This document shows positions 4,973 through 36,316 of a DNA stretch of 64,000 nt, in pieces. The position numbers and the translations under genes are program-made. Source of the DNA: Paracoccaceae bacterium. Lineage in GTDB: Bacteria; Pseudomonadota; Alphaproteobacteria; Rhodobacterales; Rhodobacteraceae. Location: positions 585,358 to 649,357 of the forward strand of contig OZ244066.1 of assembly GCA_965215545.1 (NCBI GenBank). Direction: 5' to 3'. How positions within the stretch are numbered: position 1 is the stretch's first letter; every line of letters starts with the position of its first letter. The notes beneath the pieces are model-generated. The model did not search any database and was not told where the DNA came from. It saw only the letters and a program-made list of their open reading frames with translations.

Positions 4973-6753
4973 ATGGCGCTCGCCAGGAAGGAGCTTGCAG
5001 ACTTTGTCAATCGCGACGAGGGCGATGCACCCCCGGTGTTTGTCGGCCGCAAGGATGTCTTGGCCGATATCCTGGCCGCTGCCGACCGGAGTTGGGCCGG
5101 CCTTGACGGGGTACAGGGTCGTGCCAAGGACACCCGGATCATCCAGGGCGCCCCGGGTGCCGGCAAGAGCACCATCCTCGCCGAGTTGGCCCGCCGGGCG
5201 GCGACCGCGGCACCCGACGGTGGAACGACGCAGGTTCTTTCTCTCAATTCTGCCGACATCAACGAACCCATCGACATCCTCCGACCACTGGCGGAGCGGG
5301 TCGATCCCGCCAGGGCCCAGGAGTTCCTGGCCCGGTTCCAGACCACCCGCACTGTGGGCGGCTCGGTGGGAGCATTGCAGACGGCCGTCACCGGCACCCG
5401 CACCACGACCACCACCCCATATGCGCCCGAGCCGACCCTGGCCGCCTTCCGCGACTGGGTGCGGGACACAACGGATAATGGTCTGCAGGGCCCCATCATC
5501 ATCGCCATCGATGAGGCCCAGCGCCTGCGGTATCCGGACACACACCCGGTGGCCAAGGTGCTGCAGGGCCTGCATGACAACACGACTGGCCTGCCCCTGA
5601 CTCTCGGGCTGGCTGGCCTCGGCGACACCGACGCCCGGGCCATGGACATGGGCCTGACCCGGGGCAAGCGCCGCCACGCCATCGGGGGCCTGACCGCCCC
5701 CGAGGTCACCACCCTCTTCACCGGCTTCTGCCGGCATTACGGTCTGGATCCCACCGGCCATGCAGACGCTCTCGAAGCCCTGGCCCGACCCTGCGAGGGC
5801 TGGCCACGCCACCTCCACTTCGCCCTGCAGGCCCTCGGTCGGGCGGTCCTGGCCACCGCAGGCGATCTGAGCGCGGTGGACTGGGAGACAGCCGCCGCCG
5901 AGGCGGCCGCGAGCCGTCTCGACTACTACCGGAGCCAGCAGCGCGGTGCCCTGCAGGCATGCCCGGCGCTCGTCGGGACCGTGCTAGCCGATCTTGCGCC
6001 CGGCCAGCGCCGCCTCCATGTGATCGACTTGATCGAACAGTATGATGGGGCACACCCGGGCCAGGCGTGGCAGGTCCCCGAAGGCATGACACCAAGGTCC
6101 CTGACCGACCATCTTCTCCATCGCGGCGTGCTTCAGGAAGAGCCAGACGGGTCCCTGACTTGCCCCATCCCCTCCTTCCGGTCCTATCTTGTCCGTGACT
6201 GGACCCGCATGGAGGTCGAGACGCTGGACAGCGCGGCAGAGGGCAAGACTCCCGGTGCCCACGCCACCCGAATCCTCGCCGCCACGGAGCCCCACACCGA
6301 GGAGGAGATCAGCCGCTGGGAGGCCTTGGCGACCACCTGGCGGCGGCGGCCGCGGATGCAGCAGCCCTGGCCACCGTCACCGACAGCCCCACCGATGCCG
6401 ACCGGGCCCGCGCGGCCACCCTTCTTGCCACCCTGGCGGCGGCCGGCCCGGCCCCACCTGCAGGTGCAGACAGCCCGACCCTGCCCCGGGTGCTCCCGCA
6501 TGCCGAGAGGGCTGTCGTGGCTCTTGAGGAGAGGGTCGACGTGGTGCGGGGCGCGGCCCAGGCTCTCCGTGATGGCAAGGCCGATCCCGGGCGGGCCGCC
6601 ATACTCGCGGATGTGGCCGGTCTGCCCGGAGAGGCGATGGCCGCCAGCCCAGACGAGCGGCTCGAGTGGGCGATCGCATATCTGGCCGAGGAGAGGCCAG
6701 GGGCGGCGACTCCCGAATCACCGGTGGCGAGCGGGCCTGCGGTGGAAGTCTGA
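4973..6753 (+). pseudogene. P-loop AAA ATPase (AAA_22/ExeA/ORC-like), paralogue 1, frameshifted
   Basis: Walker A is GAPGAGKST and Walker B is IIIAIDEAQ. Collinear with the intact paralogue at 27681-29513. The frame is lost in the (CGG)n run at 6341-6355. The paralogue-matching C-terminus (APPAGADSPTLPRVLPHAERAVVALEERVD...) continues in another frame to the stop at 6753. The start was chosen at ATG 4973 (RBS GAAGAGAGGA) by alignment with the paralogue. Confidence 0.7.
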
Positions 6754-19037: not shown

Positions 19038-19220
19038 CAACCGGGCAATCCGCCAGCCCATCGGCCGGAAGGTCTCGAAGATCACGTCACTGTTCAGGGT
19101 CCTGCCCCACCGCCAGACCCTGTCCGCCGGCAGGCTGTTTGACACCGTCTGTCGCATCGCCCATCCACCCACCAGCCAGGACGGCCAAAGCCGCGGCGAC
19201 AGGCAGCCGGCAGGCATCCC

Positions 19221-19512
19221 GTGTCAGGACCCATCGACGATCGTGAGTCATTGGCCAACCCGAGCACCACCCTGACAGCAGCCCTTGCCGACCGCGATGC
19301 CGTGATTGCCGAGCACCGCACCACCGTCGCCGTCCAGGCCGCCCCATCGCCGAACCGGAGCGCCGCCTCGGACTCGACGGTGCGGGCAAAGCCACCGTCC
19401 GTCGCGCCAGCCAAAGAGCAACCGGATGCCGGGCGGCCCGCGGCGCCGTCCCGACCCCATCGCGGACCACGATCCTGATATCTGCACAATCTGTGGCGCG
19501 GGGGACCAATAA
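19221..19512 (+). pseudogene. IS66-family transposase N-terminal remnant (frameshifted, truncated)
   Basis: LTAALADRDAVIAEHRTTV is coiled-coil-like. In a second frame, RRPDPIADHDPDICTICGAGDQ resembles the ...HLPRE..H.P..C.CG.. zinc-finger entry of IS66 TnpC. It stops where the AT-richer islet begins. Confidence 0.3.
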
Positions 19513-19570
19513 TTGGGGGATTTCTCGTAGGCGGGGCAAGATGATGTGGATTGGGGCGTGCCGGGGAGGC

Positions 19571-20992
19571 TTACGGTGAGGTCTGGTCCGGAACAGCACG
19601 ACGGCTCGTTATGAAAGCCTCAGGGTTGTCATTCCCGGCGTGCCCAGCGAACACTTCCAGGCAGTCAAGGAGACAGTGCCTTGCCAGCTGCTCACCAAGT
19701 GCTCGATCATGCGTCCAGTCACAACCCAGACGATCGCTGACACCGTGGAGGAGGCGGCTGCGACCGGGATCGTCGTAGAGTTCATCAATCCTGTTTCTCA
19801 GAGCTTCATCGTAGCTGTCAGGAAGGCAGACCTCCACCAGCTCCCGAATCCCAATTTTCCTCCGCCCCTTTGTGAGGGCATCCAGTGAGGTCATGAAATT
19901 GGCCAGAGCCATTGGGTTGACCTTCTGCCGACATCCTGCATGAAACCACAGCAGGGCCTGATGCAGGGCTGCTGCCATTTTGGGGTGATCGGTAACGGCA
20001 TAGTCAGACCCTTGGACAAACCAATCAATGGCATCACCAGCGGCCTTGAAAACCTGAGCATGGTCGCTGCAGTATTCTGACCATTTTTCCTTTGACATGA
20101 AACTGCCTATGCCGCCCTCGGAATATTCCCACACTGTCCGAAGGGCCCATTCCCTGCTCTGGGAACGTCGGGTCACCGAGGCCTGTTCATGGGGGATATC
20201 ATCCCAGGTCAGACGCATGTCCCTGAGGGCTTTTGATGGCGTCGGGAAACCAAGGGAGATTGCTGTCAATGCCAGATGGGCGGCCATTAGGGCAATATTA
20301 TGCCCCGCCTCCGCCCCCATTGGCCGCTTGACAGTGACACTGCAGACAAAGTCCGCCCCACCCACGGTTCTAGCAATCCTCCCGGCAGACCCGGTGAGGT
20401 TTGCGTCTCCTGATTGCCCGTTCTGCCAATGATCCCTGAGGACCGTGGCATCGTCCAAATCCAAGCGGCCTGCCTCTGCAGTCTGACCAACCCAGTCCAG
20501 TCGCGGTTCAAAGGCGACCGGTCCGATTGCCGGCAAGCCAGGGAAGTCGGAAAGATTGGAGAGATGGCAACCGAACAGGTGGGTTCGGGGGCCAGTGGCG
20601 GCCTTCTCTTCACTCTCGATACTGGCTAACAAAGTTTGATAGAATGTATCGGACGGGATTGTTTTGACGTTATCGGTTGTTGCTACAACATCAGCGAAAC
20701 AGTGGAAAACGATTTCAGTCCATTCCTTGTTTTTGAATGCTGTCTGCCGTTCCTCATTCATCTCTGCGTAAAGAGTTGCGGCAATTTGGGACAACAGTTT
20801 TTGACCGTCCGGGCCGATATAAACCGGTGCGTCGGTGTTTAGCCTCAGCCTGTAAATGTCCCTGAAACGCAGAAGCGTCCAGTCTCCGAACCGGCCATCC
20901 TGCTTGACCCCGACCTCAACCCTTCCACTTGGAAATGGCTTTATAAGAGATTTCAAGTCCTTGAGTTCATCAAGCACGGCAGGAGCGGCCAT
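19571..20992 (-). CDS. Hypothetical about 473-aa protein with a C-terminal Rx4H (HEPN-like) motif
   Basis: Long ORF in an AT-richer patch with no shadow-ORF character. The C-terminus is ...LHQALLWFHAGC...FMTSLDALTKG...RIDELYDDPGRSRLLHGVSD. Start set at Met31 of the 503-aa ORF (MAAPAVLDELKDLK), which leaves an 88-bp divergent intergenic region. Starts at 21082 or 21040 are possible. Confidence 0.6.
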   Translation of the reverse strand: MAAPAVLDELKDLKSLIKPFPSGRVEVGVKQDGRFGDWTLLRFRDIYRLRLNTDAPVYIGPDGQKLLSQIAATLYAEMNEERQTAFKNKEWTEIVFHCFADVVATTDNVKTIPSDTFYQTLLASIESEEKAATGPRTHLFGCHLSNLSDFPGLPAIGPVAFEPRLDWVGQTAEAGRLDLDDATVLRDHWQNGQSGDANLTGSAGRIARTVGGADFVCSVTVKRPMGAEAGHNIALMAAHLALTAISLGFPTPSKALRDMRLTWDDIPHEQASVTRRSQSREWALRTVWEYSEGGIGSFMSKEKWSEYCSDHAQVFKAAGDAIDWFVQGSDYAVTDHPKMAAALHQALLWFHAGCRQKVNPMALANFMTSLDALTKGRRKIGIRELVEVCLPDSYDEALRNRIDELYDDPGRSRLLHGVSDRLGCDWTHDRALGEQLARHCLLDCLEVFAGHAGNDNPEAFITSRRAVPDQTSP

Positions 20993-21080
20993 TAGGTGGA
21001 ATCCTTGTGCAGATTCGGGATAAGGAACACCACTCCCCATTTTGCCCGGGAATACAAGAAAAACCATAGAGCCGACTTGC

Positions 21081-22093
21081 ATGAAACCCGCTCAGATAAC
21101 CAACCCCAAGGACGGACACGACGTCTTTATTCTGGGGGCAGGATTTTCAAAGGCAATCAGCAGGATCATGCCGACACTGGATGAGCTGGGCCAAAAGATC
21201 CGCCAGGAATCTCGTGGTCAGGACGGACCGGGCTATGACATGGCCAAGTGGTGCAACAATGTCGAATTGTGGATGACGGACATGCTGCATGCCCAGCCCT
21301 TTTGCCTGATCTGGTCCACGGCTGCCAAGCGATCGGGCTCTGGACGCGCAAGACCATTGGGAGAATCATTCAGGAGCGCTCGCACCAAGCAACAGAGATG
21401 GCAGCCCCTGCATGGCTCTGTCAATTGACGCGGGCCTGGCAAGACCACAAATCTGTCATTATCACCCTGAACTACGACACCCTTGTCGAACAGGCTGTTC
21501 GACAAAGCACACCCACACGGGGTCTCTACCCTCCCCACTTCGCCGATATCAAGACACGCAGAGGAGAGGCTGTATGGGGTTCAGACAATCAGGCCTTCCA
21601 GTTGCTCAAACTGCATGGATCAGTGAACTGGCACTACTCCGGTCAGGAAGACTTTTATGGAGAGACAATCTTCTACTCTGACGTTGCCGAGTTTGGCCAT
21701 AAGTCCGGTGCATCTTCTTCTGAAACGTTTGAAATAGCTGAAGATAAGATGATGCTCTTGGCCCCTCCGGTTTTTGACAAAACCCCATTCTTCAAGAACG
21801 GGGCCGTCAGAGCCCTTTGGGCACGGGCTGCAGAGGCCCTGCAAACCGCAAAGAGAATCTACCTGATTGGATACTCTCTGCCGGCTTCTGATTTGGGCAT
21901 GCACTCATTCCTCATTCAAAACTGCCCGGAGGAATCTGTTCCCTTTTATGTGATCAACCGTGATGCAGAGGCCCCAAATCACTACCGAAATATCCTCGAA
22001 AGCCGCTGTTCTGTCGACATCAAAGACACGTACATCAGAGTGAATGATCCCGTAGGCCGGTTTGTGAAGGATTACCTGCAAGAACTTCGGTGA
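21081..22093 (+). pseudogene. SIR2_2-type (prokaryotic SIR2/NADase-like) protein, interrupted by one frameshift
   Basis: FILGAGFSKA (GAGxS) lies in frame 0, in the N-terminal piece that starts at ATG 21081. IITLNYDTLVEQA (Asn), LLKLHGSVNW (His) and IYLIGYSLPASD lie in frame 2 (to 22093). The frames meet at the T4 run at 21300-21303. One extra T would give ...HAQPFLPDLVHG.... Confidence 0.75.
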
Positions 22094-22108
22094 AACAGAC
22101 CGGAAGAT

Positions 22109-22538
22109 GTAACTGTTCAGGTTCCTGAGCCAGGAACTGCCGGCCCGCAGCGGCGATCAGCGGAGCGGAGCGGACGCCGACTCTGCGATCCGGTCCATCA
22201 ACCCCTCCGGTGACGCCCGCAGCGTTGCCAGCCGGTCTGCAGCACGGCATGACTCTGGACCCCCTCGGTCCTGCAGACACGGCCGGCGATCGTCGGCTGC
22301 AGCTTGCGGGGGCAGCACGGACAATCCGGATGGCGAAGGTCAGGCTCAAACTGTCCGGCTGCTTCCGCCCCCAGCGCAACGCCGCGGCCTGGTGCCGGAT
22401 CGCCAGCGGCCTGCGTTCAATGGCGGCCCGCGGCTGCCATCCACTTGCTGCCATTGCGATTGCACTGGCCGGACAGGTGGCGCGCATGATTGATCACGAT
22501 GACTGGCCATCTGTACTTGAGAAGGGGTGAGCAGTTAC
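22109..22538 (+). mobile_element. IS66-like internally deleted (MITE-like) remnant with GTAA termini
   Basis: Starts GTAACTGTTCAGGTTCCTGAG and ends ...GAGCAGTTAC (imperfect inverted termini; 5'-GTAA is typical of IS66). It encodes a fragment, RMAKVRLKLSGCFRPQRNAAAWCRIASGLRSMAARG, that resembles the C-terminus of IS66/ISBst12-type transposases. Confidence 0.4.
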
Positions 22539-23036: not shown

Positions 23037-24761
23037 ATGAGTGCCATGCAGCGGGTCCTGATCACTTCAGCACTTCCTTACATCAATGGAATCAAGCATC
23101 TTGGTAATCTGGTTGGCAGCCAGTTGCCTTCAGATCTCTATGCCCGGTACCTGCGCCAGCGCGGCGTCGAGGTCATGTTCATCTGTGCAACCGATGAACA
23201 TGGGACTCCGGCCGAGATCGCTGCCACCAAGTCTGGAATGTCGGTCGAGGACTACTGTCATGACATGTACAAGACCCAGAAGGCTCTCGCCGACGGGTTC
23301 CTGTTGTCCTTTGATCACTACGGTCGATCCTCGAGCCCGCAGAACCATCGCCTCACCCAACATTTTGCCGGTCGCCTGGCAGCCAACGGTCACATCGTCG
23401 AGATTGAGGATCGCCAGATTTATTCCGTGGCTGATGGCCGCTTCCTGCCTGATCGTTTCGTCCAAGGGACCTGCCCGGCCTGTGGCTATGAGCGGGCCCG
23501 GGGTGATCAGTGTGAAAACTGTACAAAGCAGCTCGATCCCGAGGACCTGATCAACCCGCGATCCGAGATCTCGGGATCCACCGAGCTGGAGATGCGCCAG
23601 ACCCGTCATCTCTACCTCCGCCAATCCCGGTTCCGGGACGAGCTGGATGCCTGGATTGCCTCCAAGACCGACTGGCCGGTCCTCACCACATCCATTGCCC
23701 GCAAATGGTTGCATGACGATGATGGATTGCAGGACCGGGGCATCACCCGCGATCTGGATTGGGGCATTCCAGTCCGATGCGGCACCGAGACCTGGCCCGG
23801 CATGGAGAACAAGGTCTTCTATGTCTGGTTTGATGCCCCGATCGAGTACATCGCCGCCACCGCCGAGTGGGCCGAAGCCAATGGCTTGCCGGACGCGGCC
23901 TGGGAACGTTGGTGGCGCATCGACCGGGGGGCGGATGATGTTCGCTACGTCCAGTTCATGGGCAAGGACAATGTCCCCTTTCACACCCTGTCCTTCCCGA
24001 TCACCATTCTCGGCTCCGGGGAACCTTGGAAACTCGTGGATTACATCAAGTCATTCAACTTCCTCAATTACGATGGTGGCCAATTCTCAACCAGCCTGGA
24101 GCGGGGCATCTTCATGGATCAGGCTCTTGATATCCTGCCCGCTGATACCTGGCGCTGGTGGCTGCTCTCACACGCACCGGAGCATGCCGACAGCGAATTC
24201 ACCTGGGACAACTTTGCCGATACCATCAACACCGACCTTGCCAATGTGCTCGGCAACTTCATCAGCCGGATTGCCGGATTCTGCCGCAATCACTTTGCCG
24301 GTCGTGTGCCAACCCACGGCGACTGGGGACCCCCGGAACGAGACACTGCCGCACGGGTCCAGACCGGGCTCGAAGCCTATCAGGAGACCATGGATGCCAT
24401 TGAGGTCCGCAAGTCAGCCCAGGCCCTGCGGTACCTTTGGACCCTCGGCAACGAGTATGTCCAGTCCGCCGCCCCCTGGACTGCCATCAAGGAAGACCCC
24501 GACCGGGCTGCCACCATCATTGCCTTTGCCCTGAACCTCGCGCGTCTCTACGGGATCATCTCCGCCCCGTTCATCCCTGCAACTGCCGACAGGATTCTCG
24601 CCGGTCTTGGTGCGGACACGGCCCCCTGGCCTGCCGCCGTCTCCGACGCCCTGACCACCCTGCCCGCCGGAACCCCGGTCGCGTTTCCCGACGTCCTGTT
24701 TCGCAAGGTCACCGAGGCCGAAATGACCGGCTGGAAGACACGTTTCGCCGGCAAGGCGTGA
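23037..24761 (+). CDS. metG: Methionine--tRNA ligase
   Basis: 574 aa. [17 protein letters not shown] (HIGH-type), the zinc knuckle [17 protein letters not shown], and an anticodon-binding C-terminal part. Confidence 0.95.
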
Positions 24762-25786
24762 TGCCACCTGTCGTGGTCAAGGATACAGGCCCTGGCCAGA
24801 GTGCACCGGCACCACTTGATCTCACCAAAATCCGGGAACATTTCCATCTCTGGGGCCTGCCGCCATCGTGCACTCCCACTCTCCTCAATCATGCCGAGAA
24901 CATCACTGTCCTCCTCGAGGATGCCGATGGCGGCAAGAGCGTCCTGCGCATCCATCGGCCGGGCTACCAGTCCCGTGCCGCCATCCGCAGTGAGTTCGCC
25001 TGGATCAGGGCCCTGAGGGCCGAGGAGGTCATCAGCACACCGGACATCATTCCCGGCTGCAATGGCCATGCCATCCAGTCCGGGGTCGTCGGCGCCCACC
25101 GGGCCCCTCGGCTCATGGTCCTGTTTGCCCACGTCCCCGGTCACCATCCCGACGAGTCCGGTGACCTTGCCACCCTGTTCCCGATGCTCGGCAGGCTGGC
25201 AGCCCGGTTGCATGACCACGCGGCCCGCTGGCAGCCTCCAGATGACTTCACCCGACCCCACTGGAATCTTGAGCGGGTCCTCGGCCACCGGGCCATCTGG
25301 GGCAACTGGCAGGACGCACCCTTGATGACAGGCCCGATCAGGAACGTTCTCGACCAAGCGGCAACAAAACTCTGCCACCGCCTGCACCGCTATGGAACCC
25401 ATTCCGACCGGTACGGCCTGATCCATGCCGACATGCGTCTTGCCAACATCATCGTGCGGGACAGCACCCGAACCCTCATTGACTTCGATGACTGCGGCTT
25501 CGGCTGGCTGCTGGCGGACTTTGCCGCTGCGACATCCTTCCTCGAACATCTCCCCATGCTCGGTGACCTCTGGACGGCCTGGTCGGCGGGATATCAGGAG
25601 GTGCGTCCCCTGCCTCCCGAGCATCGTTCCGTCGTGCCCTCCCTGGTCATGCTGCGCCGCCTGGCATTGCTCGCATGGATCACCAGTCGGTCCGATTCCT
25701 CCGAGCCCCGCAGACTGGCCCCGACCTTTGCCGCCGACACCGCCGAGATGGCCACCCGCTATCTGGCAGGAACACTGCTGCACTGA
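24761..25786 (+). CDS. Phosphotransferase-family kinase (APH / homoserine kinase type II-like)
   Basis: The ATG overlaps the metG stop (TGATG). Brenner/APH catalytic motif LIHADMRLANIIV and IDFDDCGFGW. Confidence 0.8.
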   Translation: MPPVVVKDTGPGQSAPAPLDLTKIREHFHLWGLPPSCTPTLLNHAENITVLLEDADGGKSVLRIHRPGYQSRAAIRSEFAWIRALRAEEVISTPDIIPGCNGHAIQSGVVGAHRAPRLMVLFAHVPGHHPDESGDLATLFPMLGRLAARLHDHAARWQPPDDFTRPHWNLERVLGHRAIWGNWQDAPLMTGPIRNVLDQAATKLCHRLHRYGTHSDRYGLIHADMRLANIIVRDSTRTLIDFDDCGFGWLLADFAAATSFLEHLPMLGDLWTAWSAGYQEVRPLPPEHRSVVPSLVMLRRLALLAWITSRSDSSEPRRLAPTFAADTAEMATRYLAGTLLH

Positions 25787-25789
25787 TCC

Positions 25790-26127
25790 TGATGTTCGTG
25801 GCGGCCTGGCTTCGCACTCCGGGTTGACGTTCACGGCTGCGGGCAGGCGCCGTTGCAACAGTGTTCCACGTGCATCGATTGTCAGGACAGGCGGCCGCCT
25901 GTCATCCATTCGGGCCGGACGTTGTCCGCAGTGCCGAAGGTGCCCGGCACCACGCGGTGTTGCGAACCGTACTGGACACGGCTGGCCGCCAGAGCTGGAA
26001 CAGGCTGGTGACACTGAGGGGGCAACCGGAGGAGCCAATGGACCAGATCGCAGAGATGGAATCCGCTCCGGCCCGCTGATTCCGGTTCCGGACCGGCAGT
26101 TCCTGTCTCAGGAACCTGAACAGTTAC
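25790..26127 (-). mobile_element. Second, inverted and truncated copy of the IS66-like remnant
   Basis: The reverse complement of 26127-26020 aligns by eye (about 75%) with 22109-22215, starting at the same GTAACTGTTCAGGTTCCTGAG end. Weaker similarity continues for about 300 bp. Confidence 0.35.
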
Positions 26128-26188
26128 GGCTTGGTTCTTGTTCTCTCGCATGGTGTCCTCTGGAGAAACAACACCATGCGGCAGATCC

Positions 26189-32612: not shown

Positions 32613-33497
32613 GCTGTGTACTTAAATATTGACAGATCTGTCTGGAGCTGCGAGAGGAGCCAAAAAACCATCAGGCAGGAGCAGACCCATGAGCGGACAC
32701 CGCCACGACATGACCGATGCCGAGTGGGCGATCCTCCGCTCGGTGCTTCCCCAGAGACACCAGGGACCCCGCCGGATCCATGACCGAAGGGTCATGGATG
32801 GTATCTTCTTCGTGTTGCGCACCGGCATCCCCTGGCGGGATCTCCCCGAACGCTACGGTCCCCACTCGACCTGTTTCAATCGCTACAACCGCTGGAGCAG
32901 GAACGGCACCTGGGCCCGGATCATGCGGGCCCTGGCCGAGCGGACGGATGGTGATGGAGGCCCGGTCGGACCCGTGCGCCTGCGCATGCTGGACTCCTCC
33001 GTCGTGCGGGCCCACAAGCATGCTGCCGGGGCCCGCCGCGACGGCCCGCCGCCGCCGATCGGCCGGAGCCGTGGCGGTCGGACGACCAAGGTCCATCTCG
33101 CCCTCAGCGGGACGGACGCGGTGCAGGCCCTGGTCCTGACCCCGGGTCAGGCCTCGGACTGTGCCCAGGCCGAGGCGCTGCTTGCCGACCTTCAGCCGGG
33201 GACGACCGTCCTCGGTGACAAGGCCCATGATGCCAATGCTGTCGTCCGGTGCATCGAACGGGCGGGGGGCCAGGCGAACATTCCCTCCCGGTCCTGCCGC
33301 AAGATCCCCCGGCCCTTTGACCGCACCCTGTACAAGGGTCGCAATCGGATCGAGCGGTTCTTCGGCAGGATCAAGGAATTCCGTCGCGTTGCCTCGCGCT
33401 ACGACAAGACCGCCCGCAATTTCCTCTCGGCAATCCAGCTGACGGTCAGTCGCTTCCTGCTGCGGGCTCTGGCGAAGCAATTAAATGGGTACACAGC
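32613..33497 (+). mobile_element. IS5-family element, apparently intact, inserted next to the first at the same CTAG
   Basis: Ends are GCTGTGTAC / GTACACAGC, flanked by CTAG (32609-32612 and 33498-33501). Contains one uninterrupted transposase ORF. Confidence 0.7.
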
Positions 33498-33501
33498 CTA
33501 G
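32689..33501 (+). CDS. IS5-family DDE transposase
   Basis: 270 aa from ATG 32689. MTDAEWAILRSVLPQR...RVMDGIFFVLRTGIPWRDLPERYGP (DUF4096-type N-terminus), LDSSVVRAHKHAAG, VLGDKAHDAN, NRIERFFGRIKEFRRVASRYDK. Confidence 0.85.
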   Translation: MSGHRHDMTDAEWAILRSVLPQRHQGPRRIHDRRVMDGIFFVLRTGIPWRDLPERYGPHSTCFNRYNRWSRNGTWARIMRALAERTDGDGGPVGPVRLRMLDSSVVRAHKHAAGARRDGPPPPIGRSRGGRTTKVHLALSGTDAVQALVLTPGQASDCAQAEALLADLQPGTTVLGDKAHDANAVVRCIERAGGQANIPSRSCRKIPRPFDRTLYKGRNRIERFFGRIKEFRRVASRYDKTARNFLSAIQLTVSRFLLRALAKQLNGYTA

Positions 33502-33781
33502 AAATTACTTTTTCAAGTATATAATCCCCAAAAAAAAAGGGGATTATATACCTAAGTGCCACAGTTTCCGACGGCCCGATCCGCCTGAACTGACCGCCAG
33601 ATCCGTCAGGCATCCTTATCCTCCACGACCCTCACTTGCTGGAATGCTGACCGGATCAGGTCAGCAGGCGAGGTGTCAATGCGGACATCCTTGTCCAGTT
33701 CGGCCTTGCTCGGCTGGTAGTCCGATGGCTTGAGGTGGACAGTGGGGCGGGTTTCGGTTTTCTTGGTCATGGTTTTCCTTC

Positions 33782-35196
33782 TTAGAGCCAGTCACGAATC
33801 CGGTCTTCATGGATTGCCTTGCCATTGTACGGATCCCGCATGGGCGGCATGTGGAGACGCCGATCATCAAAATAGTCTTCGATGGACCAGAGGTTCATGC
33901 GCTTGTAGTCCATGATGCCGATACTGCATGTCCCGGCATTGGTGGCTTCACGGATAGCTTCCTTCGAAGTTACCCTGTCGAGCGTGATGTAACAGCCGAT
34001 GGCGGCGTTGTCCCGCTGGATGACATGCAGGAAGTCGTGCAGGTTGCCAAGATTGAACTTGCCGCCTTTGGCTTGAGCCAACGCCAGATCGGAATCCAGA
34101 TCATCAGGGCGAACTGCCAGTTTCCCGCGGCCGTCCACCCCGCCATCGCCGACCTGCTTGGTGTTGGGGGCAAAGCCGGGAAGGCGGGTGACGGCCCAAC
34201 TTTCGAACTGGAACGGGTTGTCCTTGGCCATCAAGCGAGCCGAATACATATCGACCGGGATGCCCTTGGCTGGGATGCTCATACCCATGCGCTTTTGCCG
34301 AATGAGGTCAATGGCAAAGGCGGAGATGTCGATACCAATGAAACGTCGGTTGAGGTTACGAGCGGATTCAACTGCCGTGCCGCACCCGCAGAAGGGATCC
34401 ATGACAACATCGTTGGGGTTGCTGGAAGCACGAATGATGCGGTCAAGGAGTGCAATGGGCTTTTGGGTGGGGTAGCCGACTCGTTCTTTGGATTGAGAGT
34501 TTATGTATGGAATATCCCATACATCGCGCATATTGACATAATTGAAAACGCCCTTATCGTCTTTAAAAAATTCGGCATTTCCTGCTCCATAATTTATGAT
34601 CCCTGGCTTGCGGCTTTTGCTTTTTGTGTAGGCTTTTTCTTTCAGAACATTGAAACATGAATTTGGACCTTTTCCATAAAACAGAATGACATCGTGTTTC
34701 TTGGAAAAATGATTTTTGCCCGCCCCTCCTGTCCGATAATGCCAAATGACTTCATTCCTGAATCCCCCCCCCCCTGCTTGACAATAATTTCGTCCATCAA
34801 GGCTTTCAGGTAGTGTGAGGCTGTCGGGTCGCAGTGCAGGTAGATGGAGCCGGTGGGTTTCATGAGGCGGTGCATCTCTGCCAATCTCTCGGCCATGTAG
34901 GTGAGATAGCCAAGCATACCGCACTCGCCCAGCATGGTATGCAGACCAAGAATGGCGCGATGAGCTGGGTGAGCGATGGCATCCAGCCGGTTGGCCGCTG
35001 CATCATCCCAGACCCATGTGTCGTTGAAGGCGCGGTACTGGGCGTCGATACCCCCGCTTTTGCCAAACAGGACATTGTACTGCGCCTTGGAGTTGAAGGG
35101 CGGGTCGAGATAGATCAGGTCGATGCTCTGATCATCCCAATGTTGCATCCAGTCCAGACAATCTCCGTAGTAGAGTGTGTCCAGGTCGGGACTCAT
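33782..35196 (-). pseudogene. N6/N4 DNA methyltransferase with a C-terminal Mrr-like nuclease-fold domain; out of frame at a G11 tract (phase-OFF)
   Basis: N-terminal ORF: LYYGDCLDWMQHWDDQSIDLIYLDPPFNS (motif IV DPPF). C-terminal ORF: FRNEVIWHYRTGG..., VVMDPFCGCGTAVESA (motif I), GDGGVDGRGKL...LAQAKGG (Mrr-like). The two frames meet at the G11 run (34764-34774). 12 or 9 G would restore ...KQGGGGFRNEV.... The ATG at 35196 overlaps the transposase stop (ATGA). Confidence 0.8.
34764..34774 (-). repeat. G11 (coding-strand) homopolymer tract inside the methyltransferase gene
   Basis: Counted directly (C11 on the plus strand). It is the exact point of the frame change. Confidence 0.95.
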
Positions 35197-36179
35197 GCAG
35201 CGCACTCCTGCGCTCCGCTGTCGAGGCCATTGTCGGCCTTCAGGGCTGCATAGGTCAGCCGCTTGCCCTGCATGCGCTCGACGGTCAGTTCCAGTTGCTG
35301 GATCGTATCGCCCTCGCGCATGTTATGACGGCCAGCGAACTCGTTGATGTAGCGTTGCAGGTGCTTGGGACTCATCTTGTGATAGGTGCCCTTGTAGCCG
35401 CGCTTGAACATCGACCAGAAGGACTCGATGCCGTTGGTGTGGACAAGACCCTTCACATATTCCCCCGATGAATGCTTGACCGACTCGTGATGGAAGCCCT
35501 CGATGCCCTGATAACCCTTGTGGTCGTCGGTGTACAAGTCGGAACCCGGGGCGACTGTCTCGGCCACAAAGCCTTGCAGGGTTGCCTTGTCGGTGCTCTC
35601 GACCGTCCGGGCCACGACCGCATTGGTCTCCCGATCCTTGACCCCGGCAACGATTTCCTTGCCGACTGCCCCGCGTCCGGTCATGTCATCCCGCTTCGAC
35701 TTCGGCATGTTCTTGCGCTTGCCACCCATGTAGGTCTCATCGGCCTCGGCCGGGCCGGTGAAGAGGGGAAGTCCCGCCTCATAGGTCTTGCGGAGGCGGT
35801 GGGCCAGATGCCAGGCCGATTTCTGGGTGATCTCCAAATCCCGATGCAGTTTCATCGAACTGACGCCCTTGAGACTGGTGGTGACCAGATAGGCAGCGAT
35901 GGCCCATGTCTGGTATCCGAGTTTGCTGGACTGCATGACCGTGCCGGTCTTGACGCTGAACCGGGGCTTGTCGGCACAGTCCCGGCAACGATGGGTCATG
36001 CTGTGATGCTTGATGTTGCACTGGACATTGTCCGATCCGCAGTGGGGGCACCGGGGACCATCCGGCCAGACAATCGACTCGATCCATGTGCGGGCAGTTT
36101 CGTCATCGGGGAACATCCTGAACAACCTGGGCAGGCTGATCGTCTTGCGGTAGTGCTTGCCGGGGGCTTCGTGGGCCAT
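35193..36179 (-). CDS. IS1595-family transposase
   Basis: Start at ATG 36179 (RBS AAGGAG). N-terminal zinc ribbon WPDGPRCPHCGSDNV...HRCRDC. DDE-type core ..EADETYMGGK...LYTDDHKGY...HTNGIESFWSMFKRGYKGTYHKMSPKHLQRYINEF. Confidence 0.85.
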   Translation of the reverse strand: MAHEAPGKHYRKTISLPRLFRMFPDDETARTWIESIVWPDGPRCPHCGSDNVQCNIKHHSMTHRCRDCADKPRFSVKTGTVMQSSKLGYQTWAIAAYLVTTSLKGVSSMKLHRDLEITQKSAWHLAHRLRKTYEAGLPLFTGPAEADETYMGGKRKNMPKSKRDDMTGRGAVGKEIVAGVKDRETNAVVARTVESTDKATLQGFVAETVAPGSDLYTDDHKGYQGIEGFHHESVKHSSGEYVKGLVHTNGIESFWSMFKRGYKGTYHKMSPKHLQRYINEFAGRHNMREGDTIQQLELTVERMQGKRLTYAALKADNGLDSGAQECAA

Positions 36180-36316
36180 GGTCAGTCTCCTTGTTGCGAG
36201 TCTGATATATGGCACTTTGCTGTAAATTTCAAGGGGTCAATGGCACCTTTCTCTATTTTTCCCGGCCGCCGGGCCGGAACAAGGCTGGCACTTAGGTATA
36301 TAATCCCCAAAAAAAA

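Follow-up and report, generated by a model that had tools for sequence, protein, structure and literature searches.

Two divergent genes in a low-GC islet of a Paracoccaceae genome: an intact Rx4H-motif gene beside a SIR2 pseudogene

When two genes share a small islet of unusual base composition and diverge from a common spacer, do they form a functional system, or are they simply neighbours? The question is raised by a locus on contig OZ244066.1 of a Paracoccaceae bacterium (assembly GCA_965215545.1), within the 64,000-nucleotide stretch at positions 585,358 to 649,357 that was analysed here and is referred to as the window. Between the end of nusB (19037) and the start of metG (23037) lies a patch that a preliminary description of the sequence had called AT-richer than its surroundings. 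Indeed, the islet (19571-22093) has a guanine-plus-cytosine (GC) content of 0.54, the minimum of all 2.5-kb segments in the window (mean 0.623, standard deviation 0.029). Its left gene encodes a protein of 473 amino acids (aa) with a C-terminal Arg-x4-His (Rx4H) motif, and its right gene is of the SIR2 type. The preliminary description proposed that the two make up a paired HEPN and SIR2 anti-phage module, with two independent single-gene defences as the alternative.

Co-occurrence of the two genes

Forty-two loci of the left family and 83 loci of the SIR2 clade were compared, and their six-frame open reading frames (ORFs) were searched with hidden Markov models of both families. Upstream sequence of at least 1.2 kb was available for 35 of the left-family loci, and 58 of the SIR2 loci had 1.5 kb or more of flanking sequence on at least one side. 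The two genes were found together at a single locus, L008; the other 41 left-family loci are without this SIR2, and the other 82 SIR2 loci are without a left-family gene. Clustering of neighbouring genes, done for both families, gave no conserved neighbour, only clade-local or antisense artefacts. No neighbour recurs in the 83 SIR2-clade loci, the contexts of which include restriction-modification-like genes and an integrase.

L008 displays the same divergent arrangement as the window, the same 88-bp spacer and an intact SIR2 of 338 aa. Its gene bodies are about 88% identical to those of the window at the nucleotide level, with synonymous divergence (dS) of 0.17-0.35. Because L008 is such a close relative, its synteny is inherited and does not constitute independent evidence. 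At the locus carrying the next-closest SIR2 (L009, 58% identity), the upstream gene is unrelated and lies on the same strand. Between the window and L008, the ratio of nonsynonymous to synonymous substitution rates (dN/dS) is 0.20 for the left gene and about 0.44 for SIR2. Judged by this ratio, the left gene is under purifying selection and is maintained despite its broken SIR2 neighbour.

Since co-occurrence is limited to L008, neither gene has conserved neighbours and the left gene is maintained beside a broken SIR2, the comparison of sequences favours two independent stand-alone genes, with no sign that the proteins work together. Of the two proposals in the preliminary description, the co-occurrence data thus speak for the one offered as the alternative and against the paired module. 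We consider it probable that the islet was acquired and that it holds two functionally independent accessory genes, each able to stand alone, which have become neighbours by chance in this lineage. Support for this reading (INDEPENDENCE) lies in the co-occurrence and neighbour results. Adjacency within one islet is no evidence of a system; a two-component system would have been notable, and the data argue against it.

The left gene and its family

The 473-aa product of the left gene is present in identical form in NCBI/ENA (P0001). An alternative, longer reading of the ORF would give 503 aa and reach 21082. The start was set at 20992, because homologues and the identical P0001 support that position, and with this start 88 bp separate the left gene from the divergent right gene. 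The ORF, its C-terminal motif and the divergent layout are as first described. The left protein had also been said to belong to no nameable family, and searches against Pfam (E<=1), PADLOC and NCBIfam gave no match; the Pfam models HEPN_Apea and ApeA_NTD1 did not match either. A search of PHROGs returned only PHROG 38039, an entry without an assigned function (5e-9).

Whereas a word-indexed search with the left protein found only 25 relatives, an exhaustive profile search found at least 891 representatives (50%-identity clusters) at E<=1e-3, 292 of them at E<=1e-30. With few exceptions they measure about 450 aa and match from end to end. By these searches the left family is a sizeable stand-alone family that is in no catalogue checked (Pfam, PADLOC, NCBIfam). 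Two alignments were used, one of 25 members (A1) and one of 81 diverse members with identity down to about 20% (A5). In A5 the only invariant residues are G157, W167, R411, H416 and G417, which makes the Rx4H motif the most constrained feature of the family; R411 and H416 are the sole invariant polar residues. The motif had been described as of the HEPN ribonuclease (RNase) type, and its invariance indicates that it is not a chance occurrence.

In HEPN domains, helix-2 typically holds a second conserved acidic residue, in an Ex3[K/R] motif upstream of Rx4-6H. The acidic residue upstream of the motif in the left family (E352-x2-R355, in WFHEGCR) is conserved in A1 and not invariant in A5, and E434-x3-R438 is nearly invariant but lies downstream of Rx4H, in the last helix. 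The residue directly after R411 is the polar S412, invariant in A1 and consensus in A5, whereas the residue after the conserved Arg of HEPN domains is typically N, D or H (PMC3710099).

An AlphaFold2 model of the left protein has a mean predicted local distance difference test score (pLDDT) of 81 and a predicted template modelling score (pTM) of 0.82; modelled alone, the C-terminal domain has a pLDDT of 84. The N-terminal and middle part is mixed alpha/beta, and the C-terminal part (residues ~296-473), which carries Rx4H, is all-helical. In the model, GRSRLLHG follows helix 396-405 at a distance of 5-10 residues, where the loop towards the long final helix (427-449) begins. In the all-alpha up-down bundle of HEPN domains, Rx4-6H is located where helix-3 ends or the loop to helix-4 begins (Anantharaman et al. 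2013, PMC3710099). The modelled placement is consistent with that, and a HEPN fold, with membership in that group, is plausible though putative for the left protein.

No Pfam family recurs among the 81 members of A5. One member matches the gamma-glutamyl cyclotransferase-like domains AIG2_2 (1.4e-12) and GGACT (2.3e-08), apparently as a fusion; it is most likely P0147 (632 aa), the sole member with an N-terminal extension (about 184 residues) before the family domain.

Genomic distribution of the left family

Defence genes near left-family loci include GmrSD, McrBC, HsdM, Type I, IIG and ISP restriction-modification, AriAB and IetS, together with the PADLOC candidates S31, S39 and S40. Integrases, transposases, toxin-antitoxin pairs and caspase/EAD1-type conflict genes are also found among the neighbours, as are prophage capsid, portal and head genes, and homologues occur on plasmids of Sinorhizobium meliloti. 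Such a context is what would be expected of a gene for a mobile accessory or conflict function and is suggestive of a role in defence.

A full-length member of 457 aa is encoded (L124, 4464-5837) by Acinetobacter phage vB_AbaSI_5 (PQ382036.1), a cultured, temperate phage that carries an integrase. By hhalign it matches the family with a probability of 99.7% (E=1.9e-25, 426 aligned columns), and the motif is kept as GRSRilHG. The gene is a moron between a minor capsid protein gene and DUF2213 head genes. Its depositors labelled the product 'HEPN domain-containing protein' (their methods were BLASTP, HHpred and InterPro), a label that neither Pfam nor NCBIfam reproduced. Sub-threshold matches of this homologue were to Pfam MauJ (E=0.005) and, over residues 168-214, to the NCBIfam anti-CRISPR AcrID1 (E=0.0017). 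A scan of IMG/VR for the left family gave one contig only, with Ku-like neighbours and a phage context that is not clear.

Two sub-lineages of the left family have a small same-strand ORF of about 170 aa at a distance of 170-500 nt upstream; it is not family-wide. One type has a hydrophobic N-terminal segment (L003 5438-5953, L010 ~5227-5727, L012 ~5435-5806), and a second type is found at L004 (5018-5551) and L011 (4978-5493).

The right gene is a broken short SIR2

The right gene had been described as a SIR2_2 protein over 21081-22093, with its four sequence blocks in order. All four blocks are present, but this interval is not one ORF. The GAGFS loop lies in frame A, which runs to a stop at 21428, and the remaining blocks lie in frame B: TLNYDT (Asn block, 21464-21481), KLHGSVNW (His block, 21608-21631) and IGYSLPASD (21866-21892). 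That the gene is broken had only been implied by the word 'repaired'; comparison with L008 located a 4-nt deletion, which shifts the frame and takes out the codon for a Trp that is almost invariant. An alignment with 32 relatives (A3) has QPWLSPDLV in the relatives against QPF.LPDLV in the window, and the NCBI/ENA entry for the right gene is a piece of 231 aa only (P0027). Because the deletion puts the GAGFS loop and the two catalytic blocks (Asn and His) into different frames, the right gene is, as read from these alignments, a pseudogene in this genome.

On the Pfam model SIR2_2 (PF13289), frame B reaches 28.7 bits, above the cut-off of 24.5, and the repaired protein of 337 aa matches the generic PADLOC SIR2 model PDLC04087 (5.9e-13, residues 13-297). 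The residues that are invariant in the clade (G19, G21, F22, S23, N131 and H179 in A3) are all encoded in the window. These matches make the right gene a genuine SIR2_2-type gene, and an ordinary short member of that family. It has at least 864 relatives, mostly single-domain proteins of 333-361 aa, and since they have this architecture and no recurrent neighbour in 83 loci, the clade is read as one of stand-alone short SIR2 proteins.

Programmed frameshifting at CCCTTTTG was considered and rejected by reasoning, since the relative has four extra nucleotides that include the conserved Trp codon; moreover, when read in the zero frame, CCCTTTTG lacks the form of a canonical X XXY YYZ slip site.

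Coordinates of the islet, its genes and the flanking elements are given in Table 1.

Table 1. Features in and around the islet (positions in the window)
Feature	Position	Strand	Basis or remark
Left gene, intact, 473 aa, uncharacterised stand-alone family	19571-20992	-	Open ORF; exact product in NCBI/ENA
GRSRLLHG, Rx4H motif (R411...H416), predicted catalytic site	19742-19765	-	Translation; invariance in 81 members
Divergent spacer, 88 bp, separating the two start codons	20993-21080		ORF coordinates
SIR2 pseudogene, N-terminal piece, frame A, with GAGFS NAD-binding loop (21135-21149)	21081-21299	+	Frame continues to stop at 21428
Lesion site, CTGG (4 nt) missing after 21299 relative to intact L008	21297-21306	+	DNA and protein alignment
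SIR2 pseudogene, C-terminal piece, frame B	21305-22093	+	Pfam SIR2_2 and PADLOC SIR2 models
Short repeat, left copy bracketing the islet	19086-19109	+	Direct with 22109-22132, inverted with 26109-26128
Right-flank repeat, 133 nt	22104-22236	+	79% complementary to 26000-26132; first 24 nt repeat 19086-19109
Possible IS66-family transposase remnant	22210-22530	+	tblastn, weak; no Pfam match

Comparison with known defence systems

ApeA, DARNA (PD-T7-3), HepS and Tha resemble the left protein in that each is one stand-alone protein of about 450-500 aa, with Rx4H as its most conserved feature and a probable infection-sensing, non-catalytic domain, and in their association with mobile elements, prophages and variable islands. 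In DARNA, as in the model of the left protein, the motif is followed by a loop (DARNA 121-134). The left protein differs from all four in the absence of any sequence or profile match (PADLOC, Pfam, PDB sequences). In DARNA the HEPN domain is N-terminal and the protein all-helical, whereas the motif of the left protein is C-terminal, behind a mixed alpha/beta region without a fold match, and its RNase role is predicted. Membership in DARNA/PD-T7-3 was rejected on account of this different architecture and the absence of a PADLOC match. The likeness to ApeA that the preliminary description had seen did not hold up either. The N-terminal domain of ApeA, of about 300 aa, is mostly-beta (PMC3710099), whereas the N-terminal and middle region of the left protein is mixed alpha/beta with many helices; given this, and with no match in Pfam or PADLOC, an assignment to ApeA was rejected.

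For the right gene, the nearest functional precedent is AbiH of Lactococcus, a single-domain SIR2-like abortive-infection protein of about 340 aa that works without a partner and is carried by mobile elements; its NAD+-depleting action is only predicted (PMC13064643). Both are stand-alone, and the clade of the right gene has variable neighbours. The right gene matches SIR2_2 and generic PADLOC SIR2 models, with no AbiH model among its Pfam or PADLOC matches, and the copy here is a pseudogene. A Gly-rich loop, a catalytic Asn and His and a presumed depletion of NAD+ are features in common with Thoeris ThsA, DSR1/DSR2, SIR2-HerA and SIR2-pAgo. In contrast to Thoeris, the SLOG domain and TIR partner are absent, the repaired protein consisting of a SIR2 domain only; in contrast to the DSR proteins (>1000 aa), there is no large C-terminal sensor; and the HerA or pAgo neighbour of the remaining two systems is absent from both the window and the 83 clade loci.

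Proposed function and alternative explanations

If the left protein is indeed of the HEPN type, its C-terminal helical domain with Arg-x4-His would provide a metal-independent RNase site that is completed by homodimerisation, and the conserved N-terminal and middle region might keep the protein inactive, as a sensor or regulator. Upon an infection-related cue the protein would cut RNA (tRNA or mRNA) and growth would stop; it would then be an abortive-infection or toxin element made up of one protein. Like AbiH, ThsA and DSR, intact SIR2-clade members would deplete NAD+ on activation. In this genome the SIR2 is dead, and the left gene would be the only one of the two able to be active. We suggest tentatively that the left family consists of uncatalogued single-protein HEPN-type abortive-infection RNases whose N-terminal sensor region is of a new kind, and that prophages, plasmids and islets have carried it across Alphaproteobacteria and beyond. 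It is credible that the left gene stands for a family that is new, and in no catalogue, but of a known kind, namely single-protein effectors with an Rx4H/HEPN-like site. Absent from Pfam, PADLOC and NCBIfam, the family offers a clean candidate active site in R411/H416 and is easily testable; if it is truly of the HEPN type, it could contribute a further single-gene defence along with a new sensor domain.

Several observations weigh against one part or another of the interpretation, namely the independence of the two genes and the HEPN-type defence function. The closest left homologues after L008, namely L001 and L005 (60%), have only 85 bp of contig upstream; compared with the spacer, these stubs stop about 10 nt before the expected start codon of a divergent SIR2, and so the nearest outgroups give no information on the pairing. 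(The two contigs, Ga0131711_100166 and Ga0131711_101964, stem from one Joint Genome Institute (JGI) sample, 3300009882; their left-gene homologues are 70% identical to each other and have the same 85 bp (1-85) upstream. This shared start probably marks an assembly-graph branch at a common upstream sequence.) In L008 the pair is retained at a dS of about 0.2-0.35 with an unusually conserved spacer, which is compatible with some lineage-specific linkage. As regards the fold, the local pLDDT at the motif segment is only about 64-75, and the assignment of helices H1-H4 is our own. Foldseek (nothing at E<0.6 in any run) gave no significant match, to HEPN or other folds, for the full-length model against PDB (best E 1.7), for the C-terminal domain model against PDB (best E 2.5) or for the full-length model against BFVD (best E 0.67), and the HEPN Pfam models matched none of the 81 members. 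Profile searches of PDB sequences with the full-length and C-terminal alignments likewise found nothing. The HEPN part of the original motif claim was thus not borne out by structural comparison. Furthermore, many neighbours of the left family are housekeeping genes, and we infer its role in defence from context only.

Could the pair be a genuine module nonetheless, restricted to this lineage, with an Rx4H sensor/effector and a SIR2 NADase co-regulated from the 88-bp spacer and the window as a recently decayed copy? Such a module would account for the layout and spacer shared with L008 and its intact SIR2, for the greater identity of the spacer and both 5' ends than of the gene bodies, and for the low GC content common to both genes. 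It appears improbable, as the synteny of L008 is that of a close relative, the partner is missing from every other locus searched of either family, the SIR2 of L009 has an unrelated same-strand gene upstream, and purifying selection acts on the left gene beside a SIR2 that is broken. A different possibility concerns the left family itself: its Arg and His might serve other chemistry or binding, in a mobile-element accessory (anti-defence, regulatory or phage-morphogenesis) and not a host defence toxin. This would fit with the missing structural or profile link to HEPN families, with a phage copy inside a head-gene module, with the many neighbours that are not defence genes, and with a phage homologue whose sole sub-threshold Pfam match (MauJ) is to a family without an assigned function. 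We regard it as doubtful, given that an invariant R, H and following G, the Ser after the Arg and a location where one helix ends, ahead of the last, make up the classic HEPN signature, that an independent computational annotation calls the phage homologue HEPN, and that a patchy mobile distribution is typical of conflict genes. Highly improbable, finally, is an assembly or sequencing error that would leave the SIR2 intact in the organism, a case that hinges on CAGCCCTGGCTTT at 21280-21320. The lesion does adjoin a short T run (CCCTTTTG), and a second gene in the window also seems split (~33.8-35.2 kb); yet the difference from L008 includes a whole TGG codon and is no 1-nt homopolymer slip, the read-through product would still lack a Trp that hardly varies across the clade, and dN/dS is higher for SIR2 than for the neighbouring gene.

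The spacer and the flanks of the islet

The spacer and both gene starts (20900-21420 in the window, 808-1330 in L008) are 95% identical. Both a shared conserved regulatory region and a recent recombination patch could give rise to this stretch. No sigma-70-type promoter match was found inside the spacer.

By its appearance the islet looks horizontally acquired, and the repeats around it are consistent with repeat-mediated acquisition. A DNA-level search for the islet in plasmids gave no match. IS66-family debris had been placed on both sides. The left flank has no IS66-type match, and on the right the evidence is confined to a short match of the ORF at 22210-22530 to an annotated IS66-family transposase (residues 35-75, 41 residues, 51% identity, E=1e-4, tblastn); Pfam detected no transposase domain in nine flank ORFs. 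The two copies of the 133-nt element (22104-22236 and 26000-26132) form an inverted pair, with metG (23037-24761) and a phosphotransferase gene of the APH family (Pfam APH match on ORF 24437-25786) between them.

With its SIR2 pseudogene and a probably split methyltransferase gene, the window serves as an example of the decay of defence genes. The latter lies in a second low-GC patch (32629-36215, GC ~0.554 around 33.0-33.8 kb). As read from translations only, a DNA methyltransferase-like gene is apparently split over two frames there, with DPPF in 34642-35205 (-) and DPFCGCGT in 33782-34924 (-), and it is flanked by transposase-like ORFs at 32629-33501 (+) and 35193-36215 (-). On this evidence the patch would be another degraded mobile or defence islet.

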